Part shown: positions 9,701-34,164 of the stretch, in pieces
How positions within the stretch are numbered: position 1 is the stretch's first letter
How the letters are laid out: the number at the start of each line of letters is the position of its first letter
Origin: a virus
Virus record (IMG/VR): IMGVR_UViG_3300045988_056969
Span: 46,751 to 110,750 of that record
Strand: one strand, 5' to 3'
Length of the DNA stretch: 64,000 nt
The notes under the pieces: generated by a model
What the model was told of the DNA's origin: nothing
What the model saw: only the letters and a program-made list of their open reading frames with translations
Database searches by the model: none
Translations under genes and position numbers: made by a program

Positions 9701-11347
9701 GTCGTTCCCTAAATACTCCAGTTATTGATGATGTAGTTTGTTCTACTGATTGAATAGCTAATTCAATAGCCTATACAGCCTATGCTTTTAAGGTATCATC
9801 AAATCCGTTATATATCTAGTTTGGAGCTTGCTGTCCGTCATTCCTACCTTCTTGGCTTGAGTCTATCCACATGATACCACCTTTTTTATAAGCTAACCAT
9901 TTTTGTACTCGTTCTGGCCATTTAACTCCTAAGTTGGTAGGCAACAGAGACATATCCATAATAACTCCAGCAGTACCACTATTAGCTATTAGATTATCTC
10001 TATAATAGTTTAATAAGTCGTATCTATCCTACAGATGTGCACATTTTAATATAAGAGAATAAGGCTACTAAGAGCGATTTAAGAAATATACTCCATTTAC
10101 CGATAAAGAACAGAAGTTGGGATTATCTTTAGACCTCATAACAGTCTTGTCTAATCCTCTAAGAATATATATCTCTTCTCCTATTCTGATAGTATTGTAT
10201 CTCTACATCACAAAATCATCATCTGTTTCAATCCATTCAACATCATAGACTGGGATTAACTAGAACCTATGAGCACTATATTCATTGTCTGGATAGCCGG
10301 GAATGGTTTCATGATTCTAATCTTCATTTACTACTGTACAAGTATCTCCATATACTCTTCTATAAACAGCAGCTGAATCATCAGCTCGCCATTCATCTTT
10401 TAGTCTTCTTAAATCTTCTCTAGATATTTCTTTGCCATATTTAGCTAAAATCTAACTCTTACTCATCCACTTTCTTACTACAACTCTATATGAGTTCCTT
10501 ACATATGGAGATTCTGGATTTCTATCAACAAATGTATTAAGTGGGTTTAATACCTCTATTTCAATATTAGTTCCAGAAGCCGATGATTTCACTCTAAAGA
10601 ATGTATAACCAGTAATTAATAAGTCTGTTAGTAACTAACGTAACTTAGTAATTAAATCGGTTTCTCTGGATTGCATAATATAATGTACTATATTCTAAGC
10701 TGCAATTTCATATTGAGAAATAAAGGATTGGTCAATATCCTATATAATTTTATCTAACTAAGTCTTTACAGCTTTATCAGTAATATCCTTGCCATCAATA
10801 AACTTAAGAATTGAATTACTTAAATGGTCTTTCAAAAACTTTACTATTCCCTTGGTTATTTCTAGCTATTTTTCTCTTGTTATATTACTGATAGTATCTG
10901 AATCTTTGCAAGAAATTTTCGGAAGTATAGGAGTTCCTAAATATTCTCCAACTAGAGCATCTACGTGTTTCTTTAATAAAGGCGTAAACTCTACCGAAGT
11001 GGGGCTACCTATTCCGAAGTTTTCTTCCAGATAACGGAACTATTCAGGATCTCTTTTACCATTATAATAATTATAAGCTTTCTGTAACTCATACTTATCA
11101 TATACAAGTTCCGCAATAGCCTCGTTTGTCTTGTCTATCAATTCCTTCTCTTTCATAACATAAATTATGTTGTTCTGGAGGAAGTTTAGTAGCGTTATAA
11201 TACTTAACTCTTTGTAACTTCCTACTTCTTAATTCTTCCTTAATAAATGGCAGAAATTCTTCGTCTGGTAAATCTGCTATTATTACTAATGGCATTTCTG
11301 ACCTATCAAAGTTAAAAGAGACTTTATACCCAACTGGGTCTAAACTC
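3733..11347 (-). other. Late virion-structural gene block on the minus strand; genes fragmented by very frequent in-frame TAG; includes coiled-coil fibre-like fragments and a portal-like C-terminal region near 9.0-9.96 kb
   Basis: Only short same-strand ORF fragments (4173-4364, 5542-5781, 6093-6335, 6729-7067, 7757-8098) and none of 60 aa or more between 8.1 and 11.1 kb. Manual translation of 9003-9960 with TAG=Q gives a continuous protein with a portal-like Gln-rich coiled-coil C-terminus. Confidence 0.45.
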
Positions 11348-13711
11348 TCAATATCTAGTCCGCCTATATACTCCATTTTGTACAAGTCCCTCATATATTC
11401 TAGGATCACTTGTTTCAACTCTGTATGGGTCATCATATTCGTTTCTTTGCATATTAAGTTCAGGAGTTTTCTTAGTTGGAATAACTCCAAATCTTTTAAT
11501 TCCTCTCTCGTCGTAATAGTAACCAAAATCTTGGAACTATTCAACTTCTTTCTCCACAAGTACGGGCTGTCTTCCTGATAGCTCTTGGTCTGCTAACTCA
11601 GTCATACCTACAGCGGCTACAATATCATACTTACCCTTATTTTCATCATTATATGCAGTGAACTATTCTAGCATTTCTTCGAACCATATAGTATGGCAAT
11701 AGTCTTCTATAAAGGCGGCTGTTAAATCAGTATGCTATTCGATTATAGTTTTTGTAGCAGGAGTTCCATACTATTTAGTAGTTCCATTTCTAACGTCAGT
11801 TAGAGTAGCTCTTGGGCGCTTCATAAAATAGTTAAGGCATCCTTTTTCTCTAGCCCAAGTAACCATACCCATACGAGTAGCTTCTATATTTATTTTACAA
11901 TTATAATAGCGAGCTAAACACATAGCTATTTTATAGGCTTCTCTGATGTCTCCAGGTCTATCCTTGTACATAGCAACATACTGAGGGTCATTCATACCAA
12001 ACGCACGTTTCTTAATCATTATGCAGAAATCAGACGGGTCTCTGGTTTCCTTAGAAGTCTAATTCGCTCCAATATCAATACCGTCTATACCTGCTACATA
12101 TAAGTCTCGCATCTCTTTATAAACTGGAACTTCAAAATCCTAGCCATTATCTTCTGCCTCCTATCTAAGCTTTTCCATTTGTTCTTTATATAAGTCAGAC
12201 CATATTGGATGCTCTAGAATTTTTACTTTGCCATTGCTGTTAGGAATCCATTTAAAACCATCAATATTATCCTAAGTATGTTTATTATTTTTGTAAAAAT
12301 AATCAATATAACCACATTCGGGTCTTGGGCCAATTTGTTTAAGTCTTATATTAGCTATCTATTCGGCAACTAAAATTTTATTAAACTTATTAACACCTTC
12401 TAGATTAAATGCTTCTTCTGCATTCCAACAACGTTCAGCGCATTTCTTTAGGTAGTCTTCTGGTACAGCTAACAGATTATCTCGCTCCTCCTATAAGAAT
12501 TTCTTATATTCCACAGTATTACATACTCCTCTGTGGTCCATAAATTCTGGATTCAAAGATTGTATAAAGTATGGAATAAAGAATCCACTCTCTATAGTAG
12601 TCCCATCCTAAGTCCAATTATGTCTAAATGGAAGAATCTTATATGCTCTTGGATTATAGTAAATCTTTTTTAAGCCCTCTAGAGGAGCACCCATATCACC
12701 GCCAGTACCTCCAAACAACATTGTTCCACGAGGCATACCTTGAACTTCACAAAGTTCTTGACCTTGTACCACAGCGGTATCAAGTCCAGGCCAGGAACCA
12801 GCTTCATCATATATTAATAAATCTACACGGTCTCCACGAATATTAGATGGTTTAGCTCCGTTAATTGCTACAACCTCAGATTTAAATCCTACGTCTTCAA
12901 ACTAACCATTTATTTTGATTTGTTTACCTGATTTCTTTCTCAAATCCTGGTCAATAAGTCGCAATTTAAAAAATCCTCCTCCAGTACAGGTATTTAAGAA
13001 TGTAAGAGCATTATCAAACTTACTAAAGGTACCCTTAAGGAAGGTATCATTAAAGCAAGTAATCATAACCCTACTTCTTCTAATAACAGAGTACATACGA
13101 GCAGAAAGAGAGGCGTTTATTTCAGAGAATCCAATAGAACGAGCTTTCATTAAAGCTGCGTGCTTGTGTAGCACTCTAGCCATCTATAGATAATGAAAGA
13201 ACATATAATGTGATGCAAAGAATATTGGGAAGTCATTATCAGTACCCTCACCAGAGGCTTTCTGCTAGTCAATAGTAGGTAACTAATAGAAATTTAAGAA
13301 GAAGTAATTATCTCCAGTAATGGTGTATCCATTAACTGTCATTCCATACTTACATCTTCTATATTGCTCTTTCCAAAATTCGTTGTACCGCTTACTATCT
13401 CTAAGGTAGGGACAGTATTGACCAGTTCGTTTATATACTTCCCTAGTCTCGGTAAACCAATCTGGATTAAAGTCCAATCCATGAGTTTCGTCAATAGGTC
13501 TGTATCCAGTTATTTCATAAGATAAGGTAGGGTCAAATACTTCTATTTTATCTCCTATTTTAACATCCCAATAGTCAGAATTTCTGACCCTTTCCTCTCT
13601 TATTTTCTATACTAATTCTCTAGCTTCTTTAGCATCCTCTTTCTATTCTTTTTCTCTTACCTAATCTACAATATTCTATATTTCTTCAGGTAATATCTTT
13701 TTTCTTGGCAT
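11348..13711 (-). CDS. terL: Terminase large subunit (787 codons) with about 25 in-frame TAG codons; stop TGA at 11348-11350
   Basis: Same-frame fragments 11771-12019, 12902-13183 and 13283-13477 are joined by TAG. Walker-B-like VDLLIYDEAGSW; nuclease motif YVAGIDGIDIGAN...DPSDFC; length typical of TerL. Confidence 0.75.
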
Positions 13712-15823
13712 AATTAAAAGTCTCCTGGGTCAAAACCATCCACAGCTCCAGCTCTAACAGTAGATTGTTCAGTAAGTTCTTTCTTAACCTAGTCTTCTAG
13801 TGTTATGAGTTCTTCATGAACTTTGTGAAGAGTAGCCATTTCCTTCATTACTTTTTCAGCCTGGAATACTGGCTTGCCGTTATTATCACGCTCATTTAAA
13901 TCTACAATAGTTTCGAAATAATCAATAAACTAGTCTGCAGCTCTTTTAGCTGCTTCTAGTAATTTTATTGACTTGTTTGAATCTTGTAACGCTCTGTATT
14001 TCCTACAAGCTTCTCTAAATATAGGGTCATTAAATTCTGACTCTGTCAATCCAGAATCACTAATAGCTTCGTCATGTCGTTCATGTTCCGAATACTAACT
14101 GTACGGACTTTTCCAGTCTATAGCTAAATAAATGTAAGATAGTTCTCTAGTAGCTCTATCCTTTTCTGCAGATTTATCCCTCTAGATTAAAGCCTTAAAT
14201 TCCTTAACTAGTAATATCTCTGGTTCATTTATTTCTAGCTATTTAGTTAAAGTGTTATAGTTAAATACATTCATAATCATTAATCATTATCATACACATT
14301 AGATAATCTTATTATTTCTTTTTCATTTTGGAACCGCACTTATTGACTTTCATTTTTGAGCCACAAGCGTCTTTCTTAGCATATTGTTTTCTGTCAGGAA
14401 CCCATTTTCCTCCCTGGAAATTACCCTTATGTCCTTTATTGGCCATAGTTTCCTAATCATTGTATTTATTGATTGATATAGAATCTCTTGAGGCTTCGTC
14501 TCTAGCAGATTTCATATCTTTCTTATACTAAGCTCTTCCTGCCTTAAATTTATCAACTTCATTAGCTTTCTTAGTAACTTTAGTTCCTTTTTGTGCTTTC
14601 TGGCAAGCTTTACAGATTCTACCGCCTTGCTTAAAATATACAAGCTCTTCTCCTTCTGGACATACTCCTTTTAGCTTCTTATAATACTCAAGCTTAGCTC
14701 CAAGCCTAGCCATTACTCCTCCTTGCATTTTCTGCATAAATTCCTGATACTTAGCTTTAATGCCGTCTTCACCTAATTGTTCAGCATAAGCTTGTAAATC
14801 CTGTTCAGACTATATCTGAACTCCCTATGACTGCGCATCCTATATTAAATATGCCACAAACGCTTTTTGTAATTCTTGTTGATTATTCATTGTTCCTCCT
14901 TGTTGAAATTTAGTTGTATGTCCCGGAGATAATGTTAATGGTTTAGCTTCTGATTTTCTAGAATTCCATACATCTCCAAGATAATTAAATAATCTCTATA
15001 ACCCCCTATGTATCCCAAAATCTCCTCCTTGTACTGTATTTCCCATAGTATATCTAATGGTAGAAGGTTGTTTAGGCTTACTTGAAGGCTACTCGGCTCT
15101 TGTCTATTCACTAGCTGGCTAACTGCCTCTTGTAATAGTTGGTATTCCTCTACCCCAAGTAGTTCCTTTTGTTGTAGCAATTAGGTCTGGAGCTTCTATA
15201 CTAATCTAAGTATCTGACTAAGGAATCTGAATGGTAGAAGGTTGTTTAGGCTTACTTGAAGGCTGTCCTAAGTCTGTAGTATATACAGAATTTCCCCACA
15301 TAAACTGTTTTAGTCCTCTCTCTCTAGCAGCCCTAAAAGCTGTCTTAAAATCTTTAACACCTCTTAAATCATCCTAAGCTATTTCAGCAGTAGGAAGAGG
15401 TTCTAATCTTGTGGGTAATGAAGGCATTTCTGGAGCATCAAAATATGCCTCTTGTAACTTAGGCATTTTCTATTGTGCGGTTCTTCTAATAATGTCTGGA
15501 TTAGTTGCCCAAGTCTAATGCAACTACCTCAAGGTTCTCTCATCTAAGTCCGCATCTCCGTAAATAATTTTGATATTACGCATCAATTCAGGGTCAAACT
15601 ACACTTTAGCCATTACTTTTCTACTTTAATTAAATCCTTAGTATTAAACACTGCTTCCTACATAAGTCCGGAATCAGTAAACCATCTACATCTTAATCCT
15701 CGTAATCCTTGGTTATCTTTAAATAAAGCTGCTTCTCTTCTTAGAACAAGCATAACTGGAGAATGCATTACTTTACACTACCGTAAAGTAACACAATCCC
15801 CAGGCTTAAAATAAACTTTTTCA
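13712..15823 (-). other. Additional late genes with in-frame TAG (fragments 14528-14737 zinc-ribbon CxxC..CxxC; 14935-15180)
   Basis: Short minus-strand ORF fragments in several frames; boundaries not resolved. Confidence 0.3.
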
Positions 15824-16426
15824 TCAATTGTTTCCATACTTCAATTCGTTTCTTCTTTCAGTTAGATTTTCGTTAACTACAGCCATAATTCTGTTCTCAT
15901 TAACTACAACAAATCCAAACTTGTAGAACGGAACCATGCACTCGCTAGCTATTGTATAGAATACTATATCTCCAGGTTTTAGGAACTCACACTTGTGCCC
16001 GACCTCAATAACAGTACCCACTTTAATAAATTGTTGTTCTTCTTCTATTTCTCCTGTTTCATTAGATTTATATGTTGGAGCAAATCCACCTAAGTCTGTA
16101 ATTAATCCACTCTTAGTAGTTTTAATTTTTTGAAACGGATTTTGTTCGAAAGGTTTAATTAATGCATACCCATACATAGGCATAATTTCTACACCATTCA
16201 TATCCTCAGATAATGATTTGGCGTAAGATTCTAAAGCTGCATTATGTTTAGAGAATTTATCTTCTAATTCATCTACTGCTGTATTGAATCTTTCCTGTTT
16301 TTCTCTTAATAAAGTTTTATCTGCAGCTTCTCCATTTACTATAAGGTGCTGTCCTGTACCTTCCATACCAGTTATAGCTAGTGCTAGTTTCTCATTACTG
16401 TTCAATTCTGTTCTTAAAGTTTCCAT
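15824..16426 (-). CDS. Hypothetical protein (200 aa), TGA stop
   Basis: Intact ORF in the track; no confident homology. Confidence 0.5.
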   Translation of the reverse strand: METLRTELNSNEKLALAITGMEGTGQHLIVNGEAADKTLLREKQERFNTAVDELEDKFSKHNAALESYAKSLSEDMNGVEIMPMYGYALIKPFEQNPFQKIKTTKSGLITDLGGFAPTYKSNETGEIEEEQQFIKVGTVIEVGHKCEFLKPGDIVFYTIASECMVPFYKFGFVVVNENRIMAVVNENLTERRNELKYGNN

Positions 16427-16434
16427 AATTCATT

Positions 16435-16773
16435 TTACCATTTACATAAATCACAATGTTCATCTTCTATTCTAGTTTTGTTCTCTAGTATACAACCACA
16501 CTCCTCACATACTTCTCCAAATGAAGTCTGTAATTTATGAGGACAAGTATTACAAATATTTAATCTTGTGGTTGCTAAATCTTGATTAATTCCAAATATA
16601 TGGAAATATATACTCTTCAATATTACTAAAGGTTTAGTAAATATTGCTTTAATCCATTTCTTTGACATCTTTTCAGTAGGTTCTTGAGTCATAAGTATAT
16701 AAGCCTTAGTAGGGTTAGCCATTACTGGAGTCCCATATAGTAATAAATTATTTACCATTTCTTCGCAGGACAA
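16435..16773 (-). CDS. Cys-rich small protein (CNTCPH..CEECGC..HCDLCKW), paralog of 16752-16967
   Basis: ORF track; shares its C-terminal Cys motifs with the neighbour; TAA stop. Confidence 0.5.
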   Translation of the reverse strand: MSCEEMVNNLLLYGTPVMANPTKAYILMTQEPTEKMSKKWIKAIFTKPLVILKSIYFHIFGINQDLATTRLNICNTCPHKLQTSFGEVCEECGCILENKTRIEDEHCDLCKW

Positions 16774-16967
16774 TGCTTCTTCTCATTAGGTATCTTTAAT
16801 TCCAGTAGACATCCGCATCCTTTTATATATCCTTCTTTTGGACCAATACTTATGTCATTGTTTTCTGGATTTAAATACAACTGTCCATTACATATTGCAT
16901 CTTCTTGATTACATATTGGACAGCGTCTACATATTTTCCATCTTTCTTCTATTTCCTCTAGTGTCAT
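16752..16967 (-). CDS. Cys-rich small protein (CRRCPICN..GCGC..HCPAKKW)
   Basis: ORF track; paralog of 16435-16773. Confidence 0.5.
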   Translation of the reverse strand: MTLEEIEERWKICRRCPICNQEDAICNGQLYLNPENNDISIGPKEGYIKGCGCLLELKIPNEKKHCPAKKW

Positions 16968-16969
16968 AA

Positions 16970-17884
16970 TTAATATTCAATACGTTGACGTTTCTTTTTA
17001 TTTTCTGCCAATATAGATTCTTTCTTGTAAAAAGAAAGCATTCTTATTACTTCATCTTTTAAATATGGTAAGTGATATACTGTCATGTTGTCACTGTGGT
17101 CGAAGTGTACTAAAACTAAGTCTTCAATTTCAAATTCTGGGTTTTTCTTCTGAATCATCCAGGCGTAAGTACTTAGCTGAAGGGTATAATGCCAATAATT
17201 AACATCATCTAAATTATTTAGAGGATACTTCATCTTAACTGATGTCTTAGTTTTAGAATTAAAGAAACTCTTTGTTTCTATTTTTTTATTAGTCTTCCAG
17301 TCGCCAATAATTATCTTATTACCTCTTTTAACTAATAAGTCAATTTGTCCAGCTATTCTTAGTTTTCCGTCCTCAGATACTCTAGAGATTAGATACTCAG
17401 GATATACCCCATTCTCCAAATCTAGATTGTTATAGTCTTTTATACACTCAAACTTACCACCTATTTGATATTTACTTAGATCTATATCCTTCTTCTTTTT
17501 GTAAAAAGAGTTTTCCAAATCTGCATGGATTCTAGTTCCTCTCTCGCAAGAGTTTCTGTTCTCCATATCCCATGCATCTAAGATAGCTTGTTGTTCTTTA
17601 TTAAACTCGTCTTCTGTAATGTTATGAAGTTCAAGTAGAACTTTGTCAAATTTCTTAGTATTCAGCAGAGATTTTTTCTCGATAGCCCAATCTTCTTTAG
17701 GTAGAAGTTTCTCTAGTGCTTTATAAGCTGACCAGAACTCTTTATCAAAGGGTTGGGTGAAAGAATGAATTAAAGTCGTTACAGATATAAATTTCTGTTC
17801 TGGCTTTGTAACATCATAATAAATATGAGCTTCCTCTTCGAAAGCTATGTTCCCATTTTGTTTTGTAATTTTACTTTTGTCCAT
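16970..17884 (-). CDS. PD-(D/E)XK family exonuclease (RecB/Cas4-like fold)
   Basis: Motifs GQIDLL...GDWKT (D..E/D.K) and TLQLSTYAW (QxxxY); intact ORF, TAA stop. Confidence 0.6.
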   Translation of the reverse strand: MDKSKITKQNGNIAFEEEAHIYYDVTKPEQKFISVTTLIHSFTQPFDKEFWSAYKALEKLLPKEDWAIEKKSLLNTKKFDKVLLELHNITEDEFNKEQQAILDAWDMENRNSCERGTRIHADLENSFYKKKKDIDLSKYQIGGKFECIKDYNNLDLENGVYPEYLISRVSEDGKLRIAGQIDLLVKRGNKIIIGDWKTNKKIETKSFFNSKTKTSVKMKYPLNNLDDVNYWHYTLQLSTYAWMIQKKNPEFEIEDLVLVHFDHSDNMTVYHLPYLKDEVIRMLSFYKKESILAENKKKRQRIEY

Positions 17885-18007
17885 TAGTCATAATTCATTT
17901 AATCATTTATCACATTTATCTATATTTATTTGATACTTTTCAAGTATATTAATATTCTTTGTAAGATACAAATCAATAAATAATACATTATATTAAAAAT
18001 GTCTAAT

Positions 18008-18340
18008 ATGACAAAAATGGTAACATTTGGATGTCCAATTTTTAAAAACGGGTCAGGCATTCATATTAAAGAGAAAAACAAAGGTAAATTTACTGCCTCT
18101 GCTAAGGCTGCAGGATAGTCTGTACAGGAACATGCTAAATCTGTACTAAACAATCCTAATGCTACTTCTCTTCAGAAGAAGCGTGCTAACTTTGCTAGAA
18201 ACGCGGCTAAATGGAAACACGAAGATGGAGCTAAGATACATAAACCAAGTGGACATAGATCTATTCTAGATAATGGATGGATTCCTACTACTAGATTAAA
18301 GAAAGGAAATTATGGATTAATTAAAACAAGAAAGCAATGA
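18008..18340 (+). CDS. Small basic protein (110 aa) with one in-frame TAG (18116-18118); missed by the ORF track
   Basis: ATG at 18008 and TGA at 18338; a continuous reading frame if TAG is sense. Confidence 0.45.
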
Positions 18341-18415
18341 GCGCTGTAGTTAAATTAATTAAAGAATTTATACTTAAGATATATCTTTATTTACTATTTA
18401 TATTTAATAAGTAAT

Positions 18416-18607
18416 ATGGACTATAATAGAGCAACTCTTTATGCGGCTACTGGTCGTACTTTATTACTCCCTGGCTGGAAAGGGTATTTTTATTGGGACT
18501 ATACTAAGAATGAATTAAATTTTAGAAATGGAGACTATCATTTAGATAACAAATAGCTCAAGGAGAAAGGAGTTATGGAACGTAATGATTGGTATTATAT
18601 AATATGA
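18416..18607 (+). CDS. Small protein (63 aa) with one in-frame TAG; ATGA overlap with the next gene
   Basis: ATG at 18416 and TGA at 18605-18607 overlapping the ATG at 18604. Confidence 0.4.
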
Positions 18608-18996
18608 TAATTAAAAATAATATTATACCGTTTGGAGGTTATAAAGTAATTAATCTGTTTGGATTAATATTTACTAAGTCGGATTTGACTGATGAGGATA
18701 AGAATCACGAGAATATCCATTCAGTATAGATTTTAGAATGTGCAATAGCGTTTGCAATACTTATATCTATATTATTTGGATTAGAATGGGTATGGTTAGC
18801 TATTCCATCTTTCTATATCTGGTATGGATTAGAGTATTTAATTATACGACTATTAAGACTTAAAGATTCTCAAAATGATTGCTACAGAGATGTAAGCTTT
18901 GAAGAAGAAGCTTATATGAATGAAGACAATTTACAGTATCTAGAAGGATAGAGAAAGATGTTTTCATGGATAAAATATCTAAAAGTTAATGCATAA
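18604..18996 (+). CDS. Small membrane protein (130 aa, hydrophobic core ILECAIAFAILISILFGLEWVWLAIPSFYIWYGL) with 2 in-frame TAG; holin-like by composition only
   Basis: Manual translation; TAA at 18994-18996. Confidence 0.4.
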
Positions 18997-19040: not shown

Positions 19041-19253
19041 TTATTTACTATTATACGTACAAGTGATTCTGTTTGGCTCTTCCCACCAAGGTTTATCTGA
19101 AAGTGGAGTTCTGATGCTATTGGGCCAATTTATAATTGGAGTAGTTTCCTCTACTATAGCCTCCATTATTTTAAATAATGTATCCAAGTCTAGCTCTGGA
19201 AGCAGCTCATGAATATTAGTTATTGTTTTCTTATAATTTATCATACCCTTCAA
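19041..19253 (-). CDS. Hypothetical protein
   Basis: ORF track; no TAG needed. Confidence 0.4.
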   Translation of the reverse strand: MKGMINYKKTITNIHELLPELDLDTLFKIMEAIVEETTPIINWPNSIRTPLSDKPWWEEPNRITCTYNSK

Positions 19254-19599
19254 AAGTGTCGTTAATAATTGCTTTCTCTATTGTAGTATCTTTATATAAA
19301 CCATGTTGTAGTATATTTCTTACTTGATGGTCTACTTGATTCCATATATCTAATAATATAGAAGAATCATCTGAAAGACTATATTGTGGATAGCTAGCCC
19401 TTAAACTGCTAAGTACTTTGCCATTAATGTAAATGTCAAATACGAAATTTTTTATATCATCTGTAGTTTCTCCAGAAATTCCTGCAGCTCTTTGTAAAAG
19501 TTTAAGAGCCTTTTCATATACTTCCCTTTCTTCACGCTCAATTCTTGAAGAATTGAACATCATCATATTTGCGGCTACTGACATATTAGTACGATACAC
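19231..19599 (-). CDS. Hypothetical protein
   Basis: ORF track. Confidence 0.45.
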   Translation of the reverse strand: MYRTNMSVAANMMMFNSSRIEREEREVYEKALKLLQRAAGISGETTDDIKNFVFDIYINGKVLSSLRASYPQYSLSDDSSILLDIWNQVDHQVRNILQHGLYKDTTIEKAIINDTFEGYDKL

Positions 19600-19748
19600 T
19601 TAGCTTATTTAAGTTGTCTAGATAATCTAAGAACCATTGTTCGTTTTGTTTTCCTTCTTCTACAATAGTATTAATTAAAGATTCTGTAGCTAATAGTGTT
19701 ATTTCTGCTAGCTCCTCTAATTCCGATTTAGTAAGTTCGTTATATTTT

Positions 19749-20063
19749 TCAATCAAGTTTAACATAATCCATCCAGTCTTTTATATATGATTTACATTCT
19801 TCCAAATCTGGATAGATACTTGTTATAGAGCATCCAGTTTTCGGATTTTTAAAGTGATGCATCTTAGTCTCTTCTTTTTTCTCCTCTTCTGTATTTCTAT
19901 TTAATGTTCTATTCCAATAGTTGTACTTTTCATCTAACATTTCCATATCACATTCCTCTAATATTTTCATATTAGGGTTATTCATTATCTTGTCGTATTT
20001 TCTCTTTAAATTAGAGACTTTGACAACATCATTTCCATTTAATACAACTGCACACTGTTTCAT
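19749..20063 (-). CDS. Hypothetical protein
   Basis: ORF track. Confidence 0.45.
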   Translation of the reverse strand: MKQCAVVLNGNDVVKVSNLKRKYDKIMNNPNMKILEECDMEMLDEKYNYWNRTLNRNTEEEKKEETKMHHFKNPKTGCSITSIYPDLEECKSYIKDWMDYVKLD

Positions 20064-20287
20064 TTCAATACCTTATAAGTACATATCTTGCCTATCTGTT
20101 TTCCTTGAATTGTTATTTGCGGAAGAAAATAGCAGGCTTGATTCTCAAATTCTTGAGGTACAAAGATATAATCAAACTTACTTCCAACTACCTTCTCACA
20201 AACTTTATTCCAATCGTCTCCCTCTTCTATAATAAGAGTTTTAGCTCCTGTTGGAGTTACTACATAATTCTCATTTAATTTTATCAT
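20060..20287 (-). CDS. Hypothetical small protein (MIKLNENYVV...); the track ORF is trimmed to the first ATG so that it no longer overlaps the tRNA
   Basis: Upstream part of track ORF 20060-20362 overlaps the suppressor tRNA and is judged spurious. Confidence 0.4.
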   Translation of the reverse strand: MIKLNENYVVTPTGAKTLIIEEGDDWNKVCEKVVGSKFDYIFVPQEFENQACYFLPQITIQGKQIGKICTYKVLK

Positions 20288-20304: not shown

Positions 20305-20376
20305 TTGCCCTACTAGGATTCGAACCCAGACTAAATGATTTAGAGTCATCTGTGCTGACCATTACACCATAGGGCA
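20305..20376 (-). tRNA. Suppressor tRNA, anticodon CTA (reads UAG); clean cloverleaf; probably Gln-derived
   Basis: Minus-strand TGCCCTA-T-G-GTGT-AATGGTCA-GCAC-A-GATGA-CTCTAAA-TCATT-TAGT-CTGGG-TTCGAAT-CCTAG-TAGGGCA-A. All stems pair. The D-arm is identical to the tRNA-Gln(TTG)-like gene at 34198. Confidence 0.8.
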
Positions 20377-20514
20377 GTAACTTATTTCTCTTTTAGAGAT
20401 TTATTTTCTGCTGCCAATTTCTCTAGTTCTTTTCTTAATTGTTCATTTTCGTGAAATAAAGCCTGCATAGTAGCGTTGATATTAGCTAATAGTATTCTCA
20501 TTTGAGCAACCTAT

Positions 20515-20916
20515 TCATACATAAGCTTTCAGTTGTTCAATTCTCTTTTTAGCTATATCTGACAATGCCATTTTGAATTTAGCAATACCAGCTCTTACTG
20601 TTTCTAACTTGCCGCTTTCTAAGCATTCTTGTATTTTATGAACTTCAAGCTCTCCTAGATATTCGCATACATCTATAAATAAATCATCATCTAGAGATTC
20701 TAAATATTTCTGGAATTGGTCTACCTCTTCATTAGCTAGACAGCTTTCTTCCTTCTATCTTTCATAAGATATTAATAAGAACAAAGAATCGTCGGTAGAT
20801 TCGGACTTAATAGTTAGTCCATTACCAGACATATAATATTCTTGATTCGTATTAATTGCCCCAATTAGCTATTTAAACTAGTCCTAATTTAACAATGTTT
20901 CTAAGTCTGTAATCAT
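20515..20916 (-). CDS. Hypothetical protein (133 aa) with 4 in-frame TAG; stop TGA 20515-20517
   Basis: Manual translation MITDLETLLN-Q-D-Q-FK-Q-LIG...; continuous only with TAG as sense. Confidence 0.45.
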
Positions 20917-21039
20917 AATTGTTTTCTTTTTAGTTATATACAATAATAACCTCCGAAAAGTTAAACGCAAAGTTAAAAAATTCTAATTCAAATATTATAC
21001 ATATTTTATATATTAAGGGGAAAGCCGGTACAGGTACTT

Positions 21040-21180
21040 TATATAAATAGCCCCCTGGGGTTATTATAAATTCCGACTTTTATATTTGGAGGGCAATTAC
21101 CTAGATTCCAAAAATTCATAGAGTGAGTGTAGTGGCGGTCCACCACTACGTTAGACCCCCCTGGGGTTCGTAGTGGAAAA
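21040..21180 (+). promoter_or_regulatory. Leader of the first early operon with alternative hairpins (GTAGTGG-cggtc-CCACTAC, then a second GTAGTGG) and a duplicated CCCCCTGGGGTT motif; Bacteroides-type -7 like TAtaTTTG at 21078-21085
   Basis: Direct reading of the sequence; attenuator-like mutually exclusive pairing is possible. Confidence 0.3.
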
Positions 21181-21240
21181 TAAATATCCATATATATAAT
21201 CCCTAACCATATAAGAGTAATAATTATAAATTTTATAACA

Positions 21241-23343: not shown

Positions 23344-23413
23344 TCCCTACTAGTATAATGGATTGCGTCTCCCTTTAAAGGAGAAGATTCTGGTTCAAGT
23401 CCAGAGTAGGGAT
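23344..23413 (+). tRNA. tRNA with anticodon TTA (UUA; would read UAA, and UAG by wobble); ochre-suppressor-like
   Basis: TCCCTAC/GTAGGGA acceptor; anticodon arm TCTCC-CTTTAAA-GGAGA; T-arm TCTGG-TTCAAGT-CCAGA. Confidence 0.6.
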
Positions 23414-23448
23414 CTTCATAGTTATATTATTTGTGATTATTACTTTTC

Positions 23449-25591: not shown

Positions 25592-25663
25592 CTTTCCTTA
25601 GTTCAATGGATAGAACCTCTGTCTTCTAAACAGATAATTCCAGTTCGAATCTGGAAGGAAAGA
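25592..25663 (+). tRNA. tRNA-Arg (anticodon TCT)
   Basis: CTTTCCT/AGGAAAG acceptor; D GTTC/GAAC; anticodon arm TCTGT-CTTCTAA-ACAGA; T-arm TCCAG-TTCGAAT-CTGGA. Confidence 0.75.
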
Positions 25664-25670
25664 CTATTAT

Positions 25671-25742
25671 TCTCCCCTTAGCTCAACGGTAGAGCTTTCG
25701 ACTTTTAATCGAAAGACAAGAGTTCGACTCTCTTAGGGAGAA
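25671..25742 (+). tRNA. tRNA-Lys (anticodon TTT)
   Basis: D GCTC/GAGC; anticodon arm TTCGA-CTTTTAA-TCGAA; T-loop TTCGACT; encoded CCA. Confidence 0.7.
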
Positions 25743-25763
25743 CCAACTTTAAATAATTAAGCT

Positions 25764-26137
25764 ATGATAAATGTAGACGAATTAAGAAACAAAAAGTAGC
25801 TCGGAGAAATAGGAGAGCGTATAGCCATTGGTGAATTATCAAAATATGGATTAGATATTTTATTACCAATGTCTGACAATCTACCATTTGATTTTGTTAT
25901 AATAACAAGTTTTACAGAACTTAGGTGAAAACTACTGCGAGTAAAACTGTAAATAACTCGTTGAACTTTAGTTTAACAAGTAATAATTATAACAAAGGGA
26001 CCGTTCACAAATACAACGAGGATGAAATAGATATTATGATATGTTGCGACCTTCATAACATCTATATATTTCCAGAATGTGATGTTGCTAATAGAAATTC
26101 TATTACTATTAGGGAGGAACCTCCAGCTAATAATTAG
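25764..26137 (+). pseudogene. YraN/UPF0102-like PD-(D/E)xK endonuclease paralog, apparently frameshifted; carries TAG at the motif-III position
   Basis: 25764-25927 gives MINVDELRNKK-Q-LGEIGERIAIGELSKYGLDILLP...FDFVIITSF, then TGA. A different frame (25925-26137) continues RT-Q-VKTTASKT..., parallel to the 27326-27727 protein. Confidence 0.4.
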
Positions 26138-26284
26138 ACAAAAGGTATAAACTTTGCAAAAGATTGCATCATATCTATAGAAAGATTAAATTATACTTTC
26201 TCTAAGATAGAGAAATAATTCCCTATTAATAGGGAAGTCTTTTATTCCGCTAGTAAACATTTGTTGTGAAACACGTGTTTGCAT

Positions 26285-26357
26285 CTGGGTATAGTCGAGT
26301 TGGTAAGATGCTACATTTGGGATGTAGAGACCGCAGGTTCGAGTCCTGCTATCCAGA
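26285..26357 (+). tRNA. tRNA-Pro (anticodon TGG); D-stem irregular
   Basis: CTGGGTA/TATCCAG acceptor; anticodon arm CTACA-TTTGGGA-TGTAG; T-arm GCAGG-TTCGAGT-CCTGC. Confidence 0.6.
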
Positions 26358-26569
26358 CAAGAAGTAATCAACATTCACTATTAGTACAGCAATTAGGACT
26401 GTAGGGTGCCTTTTAGATGAATCCCCGATTACTCCAATTAACAGAGGTGAGTTCCCTTAAAATTGTTACCACGCACTAGTGCGGCTATTAGCTACTAGAG
26501 GACTTGGGGTGCCAAGAGGAAGAATTGTAGTAGCTATGTTAATTAGAACAAATCTGTTAATTGCTTTAT

Positions 26570-26653
26570 GGGATAGCGCCAACGATGGAGAGTTGGGACG
26601 GACTGTAAATCCGTTGCCTTTAGGCTTAGTAGGTTCGAATCCTACCTATCCCA
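26570..26653 (+). tRNA. tRNA-Tyr (anticodon GTA), long variable arm
   Basis: GGGATAG/CTATCCC acceptor; anticodon arm ACGGA-CTGTAAA-TCCGT; 14-nt variable arm; T-arm GTAGG-TTCGAAT-CCTAC. Confidence 0.75.
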
Positions 26654-26680
26654 CAATTATGTAAAATAACTTACCAAAAG

Positions 26681-27052
26681 ATGATAAGAATTTCTAGAAT
26701 TGTAGCTAAGGATAGAATAGCAGATTTGCTAGACTTGAATTTCGTATCTAAGATAACTCTTAGACAAGGTAGACAAGGATTCAAAAATCCTGCAATTTGC
26801 AGAGTGGAAATCTATCTCCAAGTAGATAATGATACAGAATACTTTAATAGTGTTATGAGTAACATTGTTGACTGGGGAAAGGAGCGTAATTGTAATATTG
26901 CTGTTACCACAGCAAATATGGCTCTACATGATGGATTTATTAAAGAGTCTGCATTTGATGACTTTGATTATCCTATGCCAAAAAAGTATAAGGACTTATG
27001 CAGCGTATATTCTGACGAATATTTTAGACTATTTAATAGGAGAAAGATATAA
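26681..27052 (+). CDS. Hypothetical protein
   Basis: ORF track. Confidence 0.45.
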   Translation: MIRISRIVAKDRIADLLDLNFVSKITLRQGRQGFKNPAICRVEIYLQVDNDTEYFNSVMSNIVDWGKERNCNIAVTTANMALHDGFIKESAFDDFDYPMPKKYKDLCSVYSDEYFRLFNRRKI

Positions 27053-27265
27053 TGGAAGACAAATATGAAGGGCTATCTGATGAAGAACTCAAAGAAATCT
27101 TCGAAGATATGCAGGCAGACTATTGGATAGATTATTATCAATCTATCTATGAATAAAACCCTATTAGCGAGACCTAGGATATGGATTTTAGAAATATGTA
27201 TACCCACTGCATATAGGTTAGTCATATTTAAATGAGGAAACCAGGGTTCTCTACTAGGTCGATTC

Positions 27266-27300
27266 GGGATTGTAACCGGTAATTGGTAGCCGCGCAGATT
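27266..27300 (+). tRNA. 5' half (exon 1) of a split type-II tRNA: acceptor GGGATTG, D-arm, 5' strand of the anticodon stem GCAGA
   Basis: Pairs perfectly with the 3' half at 27826-27872 (acceptor 7/7 bp, anticodon stem GCAGA/TCTGC). Confidence 0.5.
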
Positions 27301-27325
27301 AAACTAATAATTAAAAATTAAATTT

Positions 27326-27727
27326 ATGGAATTAAGAGAATTTTCTACTTTTACTAAATAGGGAAATGTAGGACTTGCTTATGCTATTGCCTATTATTCT
27401 AAATTAGGGTATACTATTAGTATTCCCTTAACTGATTCACAAGATTATGACATAATAGTTGATACTGGAAATACCTTACTAAAAGTGTAGGTAAAGACTA
27501 CAACTTGTAGAAGAGATAGTGGAAACTACTAGTTAAACTTAAAAGTAAGTGGCGGAAATAGAAGCGGAACAGGAAAAGTAAAGACCTTCGATTTAAATAA
27601 ATGCGACCTGATATTCGCAATGACTGAGTAGTTTGAATTTTATTCTATTCCGAGGTCTGAAATTTCTGCAGCATCTTCTATTACTCTTGGAGAAAAGTAT
27701 TTACCTTTCAAGGTGTCTTTAATTTAA
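27326..27727 (+). CDS. YraN/UPF0102-like PD-(D/E)xK endonuclease (133 aa) with 4 in-frame TAG; sits inside the interrupted tRNA; absent from the ORF track
   Basis: MELREFSTFTK-Q-GNVGLAYAIAYYSKLGYTISIPLTDSQDYDIIVDTGNTLLKV-Q-VKTTT... fits the G.GE..A..YL...GY.IL...GEIDLI...VEVK pattern; TAA at 27725-27727. Confidence 0.55.
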
Positions 27728-27733
27728 TAAGAG

Positions 27734-27817
27734 GGGAGATTATTCCGTAGATGGTAGCGGGGCGCACTGTAAATGCGCTGCCTAACGGCTCGGGGTGTTC
27801 GACTCACTCATCTCCCA
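27734..27817 (+). tRNA. tRNA-Tyr-like (anticodon GTA) with a long variable arm, lying inside the tRNA-interrupting insertion
   Basis: GGGAGAT/ATCTCCC acceptor; anticodon arm GCGCA-CTGTAAA-TGCGC; T-arm GGGTG-TTCGACT-CACTC; weak D-stem. Confidence 0.5.
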
Positions 27818-27825
27818 CTACTAAT

Positions 27826-27872
27826 AAATCTGCTCTCTTTTGAGACTGGAGGTTCGAGTCCTCCCAATCCCA
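27826..27872 (+). tRNA. 3' half (exon 2) of the split tRNA: TCTGC anticodon-stem strand, variable hairpin CTCTC-ttt-GAGA, T-arm GGAGG-TTCGAGT-CCTCC, acceptor CAATCCC, discriminator A
   Basis: Complementary to exon 1 at 27266-27300. Confidence 0.5.
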
Positions 27873-28112
27873 CACTAATTTCAATATATTATGATGATAT
27901 TTGTATATTCAGCATTTATATACATAATAAGCATGTACATAGTTGGCCTTTATATGGCAGTAAATGAACGATTTGTTACAGTTAGAAGACTCGCAATAAT
28001 GGCATTACCAGTAATAAATACTATATTTGTTATTGTAATACTATTATTTGGTATTAAACCATTTATAAAAACAGTTATAAACGAATTTAAAGAAATTACA
28101 AAATGACAAATT

Positions 28113-28358
28113 ATGAGTACGGAGAAGGATACTTACCAGAAATCTGGTACTAGTGTAGTATTTCAAAAAGAAATTAAGCAGTGTAGAGAATGTCCGCACT
28201 GCTTAATTGTTCCTGACCCAGATCCTAATGACTGGTTCAATGATGACGACGAGAAAGCGCTCTGTAAGGAGTCTGAGAATAAACTAATTGAAGGAATGTT
28301 AAGACCTTACGAAAGGGTATTAATTCCAGATTGGTGTCCATTAAAAACTAATAAATAA
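28113..28358 (+). CDS. Small zinc-binding protein (CxxC...CxxC...C)
   Basis: ORF track. Confidence 0.45.
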   Translation: MSTEKDTYQKSGTSVVFQKEIKQCRECPHCLIVPDPDPNDWFNDDDEKALCKESENKLIEGMLRPYERVLIPDWCPLKTNK

Positions 28359-28359
28359 A

Positions 28360-28827
28360 ATGAATAAAATGAATAAAATGAATAAAACAAAAGCTTGCCT
28401 TGAAATAACTTTAGAACAGGCACGTAAATGGTATGAGAGTGGCAATGAAGACTTGAAAAAATTAGCTCTTACCGCTTTTAGTGAAGAAGTTCTAGTCCCT
28501 TCTCTTGGAGAAATATTAGAATCTGAAAAGGATTGGGATGTGCTATTTTTACCTTTAGGGATATCAGAGCAAACTAAGTCTCTAATTTGTCTACAAATAG
28601 TAGCTAATTACTTAAACAATGGTTGGAATAAAACAGAGAGTAACAGCGGTTATTTCCTTGGAAGGGGTTCTTCTCTATCTGGAAAGACGGAAACTGATAT
28701 AAAAGGAGTGTACGTCGTTATGCATCAAAACGTAAAATATCCAGGTGTTGTTTATTTTAGAACTGTAGCTGATGTACAGAAAGCGGTGAAGATACTAGGA
28801 AAGAAGTTGCTGCCGCTATTCGAATAA
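28360..28827 (+). CDS. Hypothetical protein (N-terminal MNK x3 repeat)
   Basis: ORF track. Confidence 0.45.
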   Translation: MNKMNKMNKTKACLEITLEQARKWYESGNEDLKKLALTAFSEEVLVPSLGEILESEKDWDVLFLPLGISEQTKSLICLQIVANYLNNGWNKTESNSGYFLGRGSSLSGKTETDIKGVYVVMHQNVKYPGVVYFRTVADVQKAVKILGKKLLPLFE

Positions 28828-28834
28828 TTTGATG

Positions 28835-28908
28835 GTGTTATTAGTTCAGTTGGTCAGAACGCTACATTGTGGCTGTAGAGGTCAGCGGTTCGAATCCGCT
28901 ATAACACC
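28835..28908 (+). tRNA. tRNA-His (anticodon GTG) with G-1 and discriminator C73
   Basis: G-1 then GTGTTAT/ATAACAC; D GTTC/GAAC; anticodon arm CTACA-TTGTGGC-TGTAG; T-arm AGCGG-TTCGAAT-CCGCT. Confidence 0.75.
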
Positions 28909-28938
28909 CAAACCATGTTTTATTAAATATTATAACAA

Positions 28939-29499
28939 ATGAAAAGAACTATTGAAATTGAATGTCCAGATGGTTATAAACCCATCTATAATGCCGAAAC
29001 TGGCAATGTTGAAATCGTTCCAGAAAACATTATGGGACGAATAAAGACCTATGAGGACGCTAGAGACTATCTTGGGTACTTATTTAATAGTGAAATCCAT
29101 TACACTGAATCTGTAAAGGCTCTAGCTAAGTTGCAAACAATTCTGGATGCGCTGAACGAAAAGCACAAGTTCAATCTGCTGACTGGTACTATATGGTATC
29201 CCTGGGTTCGCTTCTTTAGAATGAAATCAGTTCCGAAGGATGCAGAAGTCATTGGTCACTTCCGTTATCAGGGCGAGAAATTCGCGTTGGTGGGCGGCGA
29301 CGCGGCTATTGGCGGCACTGCGGGTCTCGGCTGTTTCTGTTCTGCCTTTGGCGTCGGCTTTGCCTATTCCAATGTTGGGATGCTTGCGTGCAAATCTGAA
29401 GAGATTGCCAAATACGTATCAACCCAGTTTGGAAAGCTAGTGTTCGATGCTTGTTTTGCAAGACATTTCAAGGGTGAAGAATTTGAATGGCTTGACTAA
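28939..29499 (+). CDS. DGR target protein 2 (186 aa) with VR2 at codons about 116-146 (FALVGGDAAIGGTAGLGCFCSAFGVGFAYSNVGM)
   Basis: 29286-29375 matches the reverse complement of TR with about 25 differences, all at TR adenines in the coding sense. Confidence 0.75.
   Translation: MKRTIEIECPDGYKPIYNAETGNVEIVPENIMGRIKTYEDARDYLGYLFNSEIHYTESVKALAKLQTILDALNEKHKFNLLTGTIWYPWVRFFRMKSVPKDAEVIGHFRYQGEKFALVGGDAAIGGTAGLGCFCSAFGVGFAYSNVGMLACKSEEIAKYVSTQFGKLVFDACFARHFKGEEFEWLD
29286..29375. repeat. DGR variable repeat 2 (VR2), about 27 kb from TR
   Basis: See the alignment against the reverse complement of TR 1732-1825. Confidence 0.75.
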
Positions 29500-29978
29500 T
29501 GAAAAAGTTCCTTGTAATTATGCTTGCTATGCTCTGGATGAGCGTAGCAGCTTTTTCTCAGATAACTATATCACAAGAAGACTATGATAAGTTGCCTAGT
29601 GATACTAGAACTCAAATTGAGAAGATAACAACAGAGAAAGCTATAAAGGGTGAAATCAAGGAAGTTTCTGAGTATGCTAACCTTGGTAAGGAAATAGGCG
29701 TGGCTGTTAATGAAACTCTTAAAGCAGTTGAAGATTCCGCCATCAGAATAGCAGACTCTAATTTGGGACAAACAGCAATAACTATCGTAGTATGGAAATT
29801 ACTTTACAAAGAGATAGCAGGTGTTGTAATAGGTATCATATTATTAGGAATATCCTTGTTTATGCTACTAACTGGTAGAGGAAAGCTATCTAAGAATGAC
29901 GAAGATGCTGGAGGTTGGATAAGTGTAGTAGGAGGAGCTGTATTCTTTATATCTTCAATGATTTGTATATTTGGCTGA
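29499..29978 (+). CDS. Membrane protein with a signal peptide; translationally coupled (ATGA) to DGR target 2
   Basis: ORF track; N-terminal signal MKKFLVIMLAMLWMSVAAFSQ and a C-terminal TM helix. Confidence 0.5.
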   Translation: MKKFLVIMLAMLWMSVAAFSQITISQEDYDKLPSDTRTQIEKITTEKAIKGEIKEVSEYANLGKEIGVAVNETLKAVEDSAIRIADSNLGQTAITIVVWKLLYKEIAGVVIGIILLGISLFMLLTGRGKLSKNDEDAGGWISVVGGAVFFISSMICIFG

Positions 29979-30072
29979 GGAGCAATCCAGGCTATAGGCT
30001 GGTGTATTCTAGCTATATTCTGTGTAATATTGCTTCTTGTATGATTTTTGGCTAGTCATAAGACTAGCTTTT

Positions 30073-30162
30073 GGAAGGGTGGCAGAGTCAGGTTTATTGC
30101 AACGCTCTTGAAAAGCGTCGGGCGTGATGAGCGTCCCCAGGGTTCGAATCCCTGTCCTTCCG
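30073..30162 (+). tRNA. tRNA-Ser (anticodon TGA), type II
   Basis: GGAAGGG/TCCTTCC; anticodon arm ACGCT-CTTGAAA-AGCGT; long variable arm; discriminator G. Confidence 0.75.
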
Positions 30163-30167
30163 CAAAT

Positions 30168-30241
30168 ACGTCCGTACTCAAGTGGTTTAAGAGGATAGTC
30201 TCCAAAACTATTATTCCTAGGTTCGAATCCTAGCGGGCGTG
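30168..30241 (+). tRNA. tRNA-Trp (anticodon CCA)
   Basis: ACGTCCG/CGGGCGT; anticodon arm ATAGT-CTCCAAA-ACTAT; T-arm CTAGG-TTCGAAT-CCTAG; discriminator G. Confidence 0.7.
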
Positions 30242-30264
30242 CTATTTAATTAATAAATTAGATT

Positions 30265-30492
30265 ATGAAAAGATTAGTAATTGTTTTATTGGGGCTTATG
30301 TTGCTATATAGCTGTGGTCCAGTACCAGAGTCAAAAGCGACTATGAGCGCTCCAGACGGGATTATTCCGTTTGATAACGCAGTTCACTTCAAGTACAAGA
30401 ATCATCAGTACATTAAGTTTGTTGAAGGATTTGGACAGTATAAGATTTCCGGAGTAGTTCATGACCCAGATTGTAAATATTGTAAGAGATGA
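30265..30492 (+). CDS. Small lipoprotein (signal plus Cys: LLYSCG)
   Basis: ORF track; lipobox. Confidence 0.5.
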   Translation: MKRLVIVLLGLMLLYSCGPVPESKATMSAPDGIIPFDNAVHFKYKNHQYIKFVEGFGQYKISGVVHDPDCKYCKR

Positions 30493-31007: not shown

Positions 31008-31024
31008 AAAAGAATTTTTAAAAA

Positions 31025-32983: not shown

Positions 32984-32988
32984 TCACA

Positions 32989-33038
32989 GCGAAGGGGCTT
33001 TACAAAGAATTAGTAAAGTATAACAAAAGCCCCTTCGC
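32989..33038 (+). terminator. Large stem-loop GCGAAGGGGCTTT...AAAGCCCCTTCGC after the flotillin gene
   Basis: Perfect 13-bp inverted repeat right after the TAA stop. Confidence 0.4.
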
Positions 33039-33043
33039 AATTT

Positions 33044-33131: not shown

Positions 33132-33155
33132 CATTAACTTAAATAATTATTAGAT

Positions 33156-34133: not shown

Positions 34134-34164
34134 CTTGCATTGTGTGTTTTTCATGGTAAATAGA

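Follow-up and report, generated by a model that had tools for sequence, protein, structure and literature searches.

A candidate glutamine-type amber suppressor tRNA at the strand switch of a TAG-recoded crAss-like phage

We analysed a 64,000-nt stretch of viral DNA (IMG/VR record IMGVR_UViG_3300045988_056969, positions 46,751 to 110,750; hereafter 'the window', in whose numbering all positions are given), which is part of a ~186 kb Zeta-group crAss-like phage and harbors, on its minus strand, a tRNA gene with the anticodon CUA (hereafter Sup1). This gene is situated between a leftward block of late genes interrupted by in-frame TAG codons and a rightward block that uses the standard genetic code (Table 1). 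Among the 21 tRNAs called by ARAGORN across the window, Sup1 was placed at 20304-20376 (-) with CTA at position 34, and the Rfam model RF00005 aligned over its full length to 20376-20305 (-) (66.3 bits, gathering score 29, E=3.2e-12), positioning CUA at 34-36 within the anticodon loop CUCUAAA. The clean minus-strand cloverleaf with a CTA anticodon, which the initial annotation had described from the letters and an ORF list, was thus returned by both programs.

Table 1. Features of the window that are referred to in the text (ORF, open reading frame; aa, amino acids).
Feature	Coordinates	Strand	Remarks
TAG-recoded late genes, clients of the suppressor	315..15837	-	long ORFs only with TAG read through
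Reverse transcriptase	315-1319	-	4 TAG; phrog_1423, E=2e-89
Portal	8985-11156	-	28 TAG
Terminase large subunit (TerL)	11348-13711	-	19 TAG
Four TAG-free genes: PD-(D/E)XK nuclease-like, two small ORFs, GroES-like	15824..17884	-	head of the long leftward block
Opposite-strand cassette	17999..18996	+	three ORFs of 113, 63 and 130 aa; 1, 1 and 2 in-frame TAG, respectively
Four small TAG-free ORFs	19231..20285	-	directly downstream of Sup1; first begins 19 nt past its 3' end; gene calls in L005
Sup1, putative amber suppressor tRNA, anticodon CUA	20305..20376	-	ARAGORN, Rfam, covariation, comparison with Bacteroidales tRNA-Gln
39-aa ORF	20382..20501	-	stop ends 5 nt before the 5' end of Sup1
Conserved 133-aa gene, function unknown	20515..20916	-	first of the leftward unit with Sup1; without PHROG match
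Divergent intergenic region	20917..21240	.	switch between leftward unit and rightward standard-code block; ORF maps
Sup2, suppressor-type tRNA, anticodon UUA (ochre type)	23344..23414	+	ARAGORN; Rfam 57.3 bits
~19 standard tRNA genes among standard-code genes	25592..43312	+	early/auxiliary block; ARAGORN, Rfam
tRNA-Gln(UUG) remnant, 3'-truncated pseudogene	34198..34270	+	Rfam 31.4 bits only; fold z=+0.24

Sup1 (UGCCCUA-UG-GUGU-AAUGGUCA-GCAC-A-GAUGA-CUCUAAA-UCAUU-UAGU-CUGGG-UUCGAAU-CCUAG-UAGGGCA-A) is a canonical class I tRNA of 72 nt without an encoded CCA, built of 7/4/5/5-bp stems (an acceptor stem of 7 bp with U1:A72 as its first pair and A73 as discriminator, a D stem of 4 bp and an anticodon stem of 5 bp), a 7-nt anticodon loop, a 4-nt variable loop and the T loop UUCGAAU. 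The bases that make tertiary contacts (U8, G18G19, U33 and the T54-Ψ55-C56 loop) are present and unchanged across the ortholog alignment, and the features that define an amber suppressor, CUA at positions 34-36 and in-frame UAG in genes of the same genome, occur together. The minimum free energy fold of the single Sup1 sequence is not a cloverleaf (-22.1 kcal/mol, z=-2.3); as non-cloverleaf folds of this kind are common among tRNAs, we relied on the covariance model and on covariation. The exact Sup1 sequence was found at 31 of the public loci examined, and in every relative examined the gene is syntenic, upstream of the late genes. Within 18 distinct 72-nt orthologs, gathered from viral and mis-binned 'bacterial' contigs, 99.5% of the cells of the cloverleaf pairs are paired (43-54% in a slid control, in which partners were shifted by 1-3 columns), 13 of 21 pairs are changed on both sides, and none of 500 shuffles equalled the covariation score. 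Five compensatory pairs distinguish the Sup1 of window-type genomes from that of a second lineage (hereafter L001-type). That the D-arm and anticodon loop do not vary in this set is partly a product of the search patterns, which left the acceptor, anticodon and T stems unconstrained. Taken together, the syntenic conservation, the paired cells and the both-side changes establish that purifying selection maintains the tRNA fold of Sup1.

As a megablast of the region 15-24 kb against GenBank phages produced no matches, the phage was classified through TerL, which matches phrog_6681 and is 23-27% identical to Crassvirales TerL (tblastn); the portal matches phrog_6547. The contigs bearing TerL homologs measure 180-195 kb, the GC content of the window is 35%, and the agreement in size, GC, tRNA load, a reverse transcriptase of the diversity-generating retroelement (DGR) type and amber recoding fits the amber-recoded clade of the Zeta group (PMC7886860; PMC12386605, Table 1). 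The Crassvirales-type TerL and portal, the recoded late genes and the standard early genes are those of a code-15 Zeta crAss-like phage, a class with genomes of 145-192 kb. The late block also holds tail proteins; its reverse transcriptase, which adjoins tail-fibre-like genes, is probably the DGR reported for the Zeta clade. Here TAG makes up 124 of 4,691 late-gene codons (2.64%) and CAA+CAG 2.62%, and not a single in-frame TAG was present among the 7,792 codons of the plus-strand genes at 24.5-63 kb. Those genes include a crAss-type replication set (SF2 helicase, DnaB-like helicase, Toprim primase and AAA ATPase) together with NAMPT, SPFH proteins and a glucosaminidase, and about 20 tRNA genes lie among them.

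The late genes are intact only if TAG is read through, and comparison with relatives assigns UAG in them to glutamine. At the protein level, Q occupies 11 of the 19 TAG sites of TerL in at least 115 of 120 homologs. We set this count aside as partly circular, given that the relatives found at the DNA level are themselves recoded and were translated with TAG=Q (for three homologs, the protein was not obtained under table 11 from any of the five encoding contigs), and for this reason used tests at the codon level and by likelihood. Among the sense codons found opposite TAG in TerL across three lineages, 58 of 146 were CAA/CAG, which at the conserved TAG sites were the sole alternative; TAG-to-CAA swaps occur likewise in the 133-aa gene upstream of Sup1. 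A Codetta-style likelihood, in which empirical substitution profiles of the amino acids were compared over 23 late-gene pairs, gave log-likelihoods (lnL) of -900.5 for Q, -1248.9 for K, -1257.6 for E and -1375.1 for H; the 372 TAG-vs-sense sites are not independent, and the margin by which Q leads (348 over K, 357 over E and 475 over H) is very large. The proposal of the initial annotation that Gln is inserted at UAG is borne out by this margin, by the CAA/CAG swaps and by the Gln-type architecture described below, and for other crAss-like phages there is mass-spectrometric proof that TAG = Gln (PMC9523058).

With regard to the amino-acid identity of Sup1 itself, a scan for its D-arm (TATGGTGTAATGGTYAGCAC) in one genome per prokaryotic species, which was dominated by Patescibacteria, yielded among the 116 matches listed 98 tRNA-His(GUG), 14 tRNA-Gln and 4 CUA tRNAs. 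The D-arm was consequently rejected as a marker of Gln, most of the bacterial matches listed being tRNA-His. This D-arm is common to the tRNA-His(GUG) of many Patescibacteria/Saccharibacteria and to the tRNA-Gln of Bacteroidales, and several of the matches in 'bacterial' metagenome-assembled genomes (MAGs) resemble tRNA-Gln of the eukaryote type (GGTTCTATGG...), which may be contamination. It is the acceptor end that discriminates Gln from His, since the His tRNAs with a Sup1-like D-arm carry G1:C72 and C73, whereas the Bacteroidales/Prevotellaceae tRNA-Gln(UUG) (L019, L089, L093 and L122) carry U1:A72 and A73, as does Sup1; the two are also alike in D-arm, 4-nt variable loop and 72-nt length. 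Across the 18 orthologs the pair 1:72 is consistently a weak one (U1:A72 in 10 and U1:G72 in 7), A73 is invariant, and the full-length identity of Sup1 to Gln tRNAs is 48-54/72. tRNAs with a CUA anticodon are readily glutaminylated, given that U35 is a major determinant for glutaminyl-tRNA synthetase (GlnRS), and we infer that Sup1 would be charged by this enzyme. The same D-arm was observed in CUA suppressors of other phage groups (L169, L171, L176, L177, L184, L188 and L195; contigs of 115-145 kb), in which a long insertion in the variable region brings the total length to 89-91 nt and CCA is encoded in most; these are a different structural class of amber suppressor.

The tRNA of the window closest to Sup1 is the tRNA-Gln(UUG) at 34198-34270, which shares 20 of 21 bases with it over the D-arm stretch CTATGGTGTAATGGTCAGCAC. 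The near-identity of D-arms noted by the initial annotation is therefore confirmed; the duplication of a phage tRNA-Gln followed by an anticodon change, which it had proposed on this basis, is no more than plausible. The comparator is itself truncated: as far as GGTTCGAGTCC in the T-loop it is identical to an intact copy in a close relative (L059; DXLM01000001.1, a phage contig of 186 kb that was binned as "Bacteroides sp."), and beyond this point it is unrelated and unable to form T or acceptor stems. The downstream gene also differs between the two, and the truncation looks like a recombination breakpoint inside the tRNA gene; no functional tRNA-Gln(UUG) of the phage itself remains. In favour of the duplication, Sup1 and the intact tRNA-Gln have 54 of 72 bases and the T stem in common; against it, the anticodon stem differs throughout, as do 4 of the 7 loop bases, and the phage tRNA-Gln is nearer to the Bacteroidales tRNA-Gln (55-60/72) than to Sup1. 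An origin by duplication within the phage is plausible, and derivation from a CUG isoacceptor by the single change CUG -> CUA is equally possible and as parsimonious.

Around Sup1, the strand switch (20917-21240, at a distance of ~0.6-0.9 kb) places the gene at the boundary between late and early modules, as had been proposed. The leftward unit begins with the 133-aa gene, which has 4 in-frame TAG in the window, 2 in the relative L004 and none in the L001-type lineage. The gap of 5 nt between the 39-aa ORF and Sup1 is too small for a separate promoter, and on the strength of this gene layout Sup1 probably lies within a short operon, to be co-transcribed and processed out. A scan for sigma-70 promoters performed at chance level (29 sites vs 30.0 expected), with a tool that covers neither Bacteroidales nor phage promoters, and a terminator scan returned nothing informative beside Sup1. 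The co-orientation of Sup1 with the TAG-containing late genes, also put forward in the initial annotation, holds in so far as they share a strand; the Sup1 unit is, however, not contiguous with the structural operon, as the opposite-strand cassette stands between them. The third ORF of this cassette looks membrane-associated and matches phrog_15610 ('protease', E=1e-31). The opposite-strand genes that correspond to the cassette in L001 carry 21-22 TAG each.

Within the standard-code block, TAG terminates just two sizeable ORFs, 21241-21708 (+) and 39927-40634 (+), both of which are backed up by TGA or TAA no more than 7 codons on (the former ends in TAG, a second TAG and then TGA), and it has for this reason essentially been given up there as a terminator. 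Three Rfam matches in the tRNA-rich part of the block disagree with ARAGORN: one of 137 nt at 27736-27872 (+) overlaps tRNA-Tyr (27734-27818) and is possibly an insertion or tandem remnant, a tRNA-like match of 73 nt at 39561-39633 (+) is without an ARAGORN call, and one at 39851-39906 (+) is partial (model positions 9-63). No aminoacyl-tRNA synthetase, release factor or tRNA-modification gene was found by PHROG and Pfam among the tRNA-neighbouring and plus-strand ORFs of the window. Among the relatives, one close TerL homolog (P0003, 1131 aa) contains Hom_end/LAGLIDADG intein domains (PF05204, PF05203 and PF14528), in keeping with reports that Zeta phages are rich in inteins; the window TerL is without one. 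Furthermore, suppressor-bearing phage contigs occur inside MAGs (L081/L059, DXLM01000001.1; L087, CALEBD010000406.1; L105, CAZYSQ010000013.1; L044, CAMJMP010000002.1) that are labelled Bacteroides sp., Clostridium sp., Acholeplasmataceae and Tenericutes; as this is likely mis-binning, the labels are unusable as evidence of host.

A second, Gln-derived tRNA of the suppressor type (Sup2) is encoded on the early strand, on the other side of the strand switch and 3 kb away from Sup1. An ortholog on the opposite strand to Sup1, at 2.3-3.5 kb from it, is present in 19 of the 20 window-type loci with enough flanking sequence, and the stem changes among its variants are compensatory. Its anticodon loop varies: CUCUAAA (CUA) occurs at 15 loci, CUUUAAA (UUA) at 9 viral loci, in the window and in two mis-binned contigs, and CUUUGCA (which reads UUG and has an unusual C37) in L105 at 3521-3592, besides aberrant loops in L131 (a 1-nt deletion) and L135 (an odd loop). 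Since different forms occur in genomes with identical neighbouring genes, an exchange of Sup2 forms by recombination is suggested. Recoding of TAA, as a target for the UUA-type tRNA, was considered and rejected: the window is fully coding with TAG-only recoding, reading through TAA adds no more than short tails, and no coding region in the window requires it. In the L001-type lineage Sup2 is absent (7 of 7 loci with enough flank), TerL and portal carry 18-39 TAG, and the entire Sup1 operon is TAG-free. As this lineage is without Sup2 yet heavily recoded, Sup1 alone is sufficient there, which supports its role as the principal decoder. In the gene that precedes Sup1 there are 3-4 TAG in genomes with Sup2 and none in those without it (a comparison of two lineages only), a suggestive coincidence between the presence of Sup2 and TAG in the gene ahead of Sup1.

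We put forward only tentatively, as a rather doubtful extension of these observations, a two-tier suppressor system composed of a late-strand Gln-type CUA tRNA and an early-strand Gln-derived tRNA with a variable anticodon loop. If it exists, the UUA form of Sup2 could read both UAA and UAG, and might begin the read-through of stop codons from the early transcription unit; it could thereby prime the translation of the TAG-bearing gene ahead of Sup1, ease the need for the standard code in the Sup1 operon, or disturb host termination at the commonest host stop codon.

Taken together, the above observations make it very probable that Sup1 acts as a functional amber suppressor of the Gln family, charged by the GlnRS of the host and decoding late-gene UAG as Gln in competition with host release factor 1 (RF1). 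Most likely, transcription of a short leftward operon that includes Sup1 would start in the divergent region (~21.0-21.2 kb); the tRNA would be excised by host RNase P and 3' processing enzymes, receive its CCA from a host enzyme and be charged with glutamine by a Bacteroidales GlnRS. It would then decode UAG, which makes up ~2.6% of the codons, in the genes for terminase, portal, tail proteins and reverse transcriptase, and, as these proteins would be truncated without it, its supply would gate late-protein synthesis. Several observations weigh against this interpretation or narrow it. In E. coli, the identity set of GlnRS consists of U1:A72, G3:C70, G10, U35, G36, A37 and G73; the profile of Sup1 against tRNA-Gln, which the initial annotation had named as a check, agrees with these rules at U1:A72, G10, U35 and A37 and departs from them at G36, G3:C70 and G73, with A36 forced by the CUA anticodon (a departure that supE of E. 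coli shows to be tolerated) and the pair 3:70 being C:G (in the L001-type lineage, the pair 2:71 also becomes C:G). The D-arm of Sup1 is common to the tRNA-His of Patescibacteria as well, and the sum of CAA, CAG and TAG in the late genes (5.3%) does not equal the share of Gln codons in the early ones (3.1%). Moreover, a TAG-bearing gene (133 aa) precedes Sup1 in its own unit, so that not all use of TAG falls cleanly downstream of Sup1, and the second suppressor on the early strand means that it may not be the sole decoder.

The licensing of late genes through the timing of suppressor supply is a published hypothesis, and it is from sequence that we infer any temporal or regulatory role in the present phage. 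Sup1 might instead be a decoder only, made with or before its clients, with TAG having drifted into the late genes by codon capture; a first gene that already holds 4 TAG in the same-strand unit, a suppressor on the early strand and an uninformative promoter scan (29 sites vs 30 expected) would all be compatible with this, and we consider it a possibility of some weight, albeit clearly the lesser one. It is at odds with the sharply modular distribution of TAG (0/7,792 early codons vs 2.64% of late ones), with the TAG-free Sup1 operon of the lineage that has Sup1 alone (which fits a code-change gene kept in the standard code) and with published analyses that favour regulation of late and lysis genes (bioRxiv 10.1101/2021.08.26.457843). 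A primary role against the host, in which read-through of host UAG impairs host and defence proteins and phage decoding is secondary, is an earlier proposal, made for crAss-like phages (PMC7886860) and for those Zeta phages in which CTA suppressors occur without any recoding (PMC12386605). In the present phage, however, essential genes with 19-28 TAG each would be unmakeable without suppression, a need that alone explains the retention of Sup1, and we regard the anti-host role as improbable in the primary position; the two roles are not exclusive.

It is still less probable, and in our judgement quite unlikely, that Sup1 is redundant or inactive and UAG is read mainly by Sup2, whose anticodon is UUA in the window and CUA in relatives, or by a host factor. 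A UUA anticodon is able to read UAG by wobble, and the presence of Sup2 in nearly all window-type loci with compensatory stem changes would be in line with such a role; on the other hand, Sup1 shows strong covariation and is kept in both lineages, the L001-type lineage is heavily recoded without Sup2, and the anticodon loop of Sup2 is unstable (a 1-nt deletion in one copy, an aberrant loop in another). Scarcely credible is the insertion by Sup1 of a residue other than Gln (pyrrolysine, His, Lys, Glu, Trp or Tyr), for which one could invoke the ARAGORN label 'tRNA-Pyl', the D-arm in common with tRNA-His, and E and K as the next commonest residues opposite TAG. A tRNA-Pyl has an anticodon stem of 6 bp, a variable loop of 3 nt, a small D-loop without G18G19 and no TΨC, and occurs in a pylS/pylBCD context; Sup1, unlike it, has canonical G18G19, a TΨC loop and an anticodon stem of 5 bp, and the scanned ORFs of the window included no Pyl genes. 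The label, which ARAGORN gives from the anticodon alone, was therefore rejected in view of the canonical cloverleaf and of Lys-like residues not being dominant opposite TAG. The likelihood margins of Q over K, E and H (348, 357 and 475 lnL) and the acceptor end (U1:A72 and A73 vs G1:C72 and C73 of the His tRNAs) speak against the remaining candidates as well, and without a long variable arm the Tyr, Leu and Ser types are excluded.

The classical counterpart of the proposed activity is supE (glnV/glnX) of E. coli, a tRNA-Gln with a CUA anticodon that is charged by GlnRS and inserts Gln at UAG in competition with RF1; it is a single-base mutant of a cellular tRNA, has G73 and achieves partial suppression. 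Sup1 resembles it as a Gln-family tRNA with a CUA anticodon and a weak U1:A72 pair, and departs from it as a dedicated, conserved phage gene with A73 instead of G73, whose loop (CUCUAAA) differs at 4 of 7 positions from that of the phage tRNA-Gln (UUUUGAU) and which would serve a genome where TAG accounts for about half of the Gln codons in late genes. Among phages, tRNA-Sup(CTA) genes were described in amber-recoded Zeta crAss-like phages by Yutin et al. 2021 (PMC7886860) and in the Zeta/'Echekviridae' survey of 2025 (PMC12386605; comparable rows of its Table 1 are ctHMy13, ctoVY1, cthgQ11 and 3717_85572). Nothing essential sets the present phage apart from them: its relatives likewise have 180-195 kb, about 35% GC, >20 tRNAs and a DGR-type reverse transcriptase, with late genes in which TAG is reassigned to Gln, a CTA suppressor and predicted Bacteroidales hosts. 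We did not find in these two studies the Gln-type identity features, the location within a short operon beside the strand switch or a second suppressor whose anticodon varies; the string TTA has no occurrence in the survey (PMC12386605), and a TTG -> TTA conversion was described by Yutin et al. in an alpha-group phage only (PMC7886860).

Two other systems invite comparison. The 'code-change module' of Jade phages, described along with a model of recoding as a lysis timer by Borges et al. (bioRxiv 10.1101/2021.08.26.457843), similarly has a suppressor in a standard-code context upstream of recoded late/lysis genes (a layout fully realized in the L001-type lineage) and standard early/replication genes. 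It differs in reassigning TGA to Trp with the help of a tryptophanyl-tRNA synthetase and RF1, no synthetase or release factor having been found here among the window ORFs scanned, and in that the gene ahead of Sup1 in the window genome already contains TAG. The phAss-1 group, whose three tRNA-SUP-CTA genes have a computationally inferred Gln isotype (PMC10607447), comprises gut phages that also read TAG as Gln and have more than one suppressor tRNA; these are unrelated phages of ~136 kb in which all three suppressors are CTA, whereas here the second one is UUA and varies among relatives. CTA suppressors, TAG -> Gln in late genes and this class of genome are thus already described (PMC7886860, PMC12386605, bioRxiv 10.1101/2021.08.26.457843, PMC9523058, PMC10607447), and Sup2 with its switching between UUA and CUA offers a modest lead without amounting to a novel type of system.

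Beyond Yutin 2021, Borges 2021/2022 and Peters 2022, our analysis accordingly contributes little, its modest additions being the identity features of the suppressor, its position in a short operon next to the strand switch and the unstable anticodon of a second suppressor. In practical terms, the minus-strand block needs translation table 15, as the terminase, portal and tail genes otherwise look shattered. For the biology of these phages, the present genome confirms the switching of the genetic code, in which one gene of 72 nt would make about half of the late-gene glutamine codons readable.

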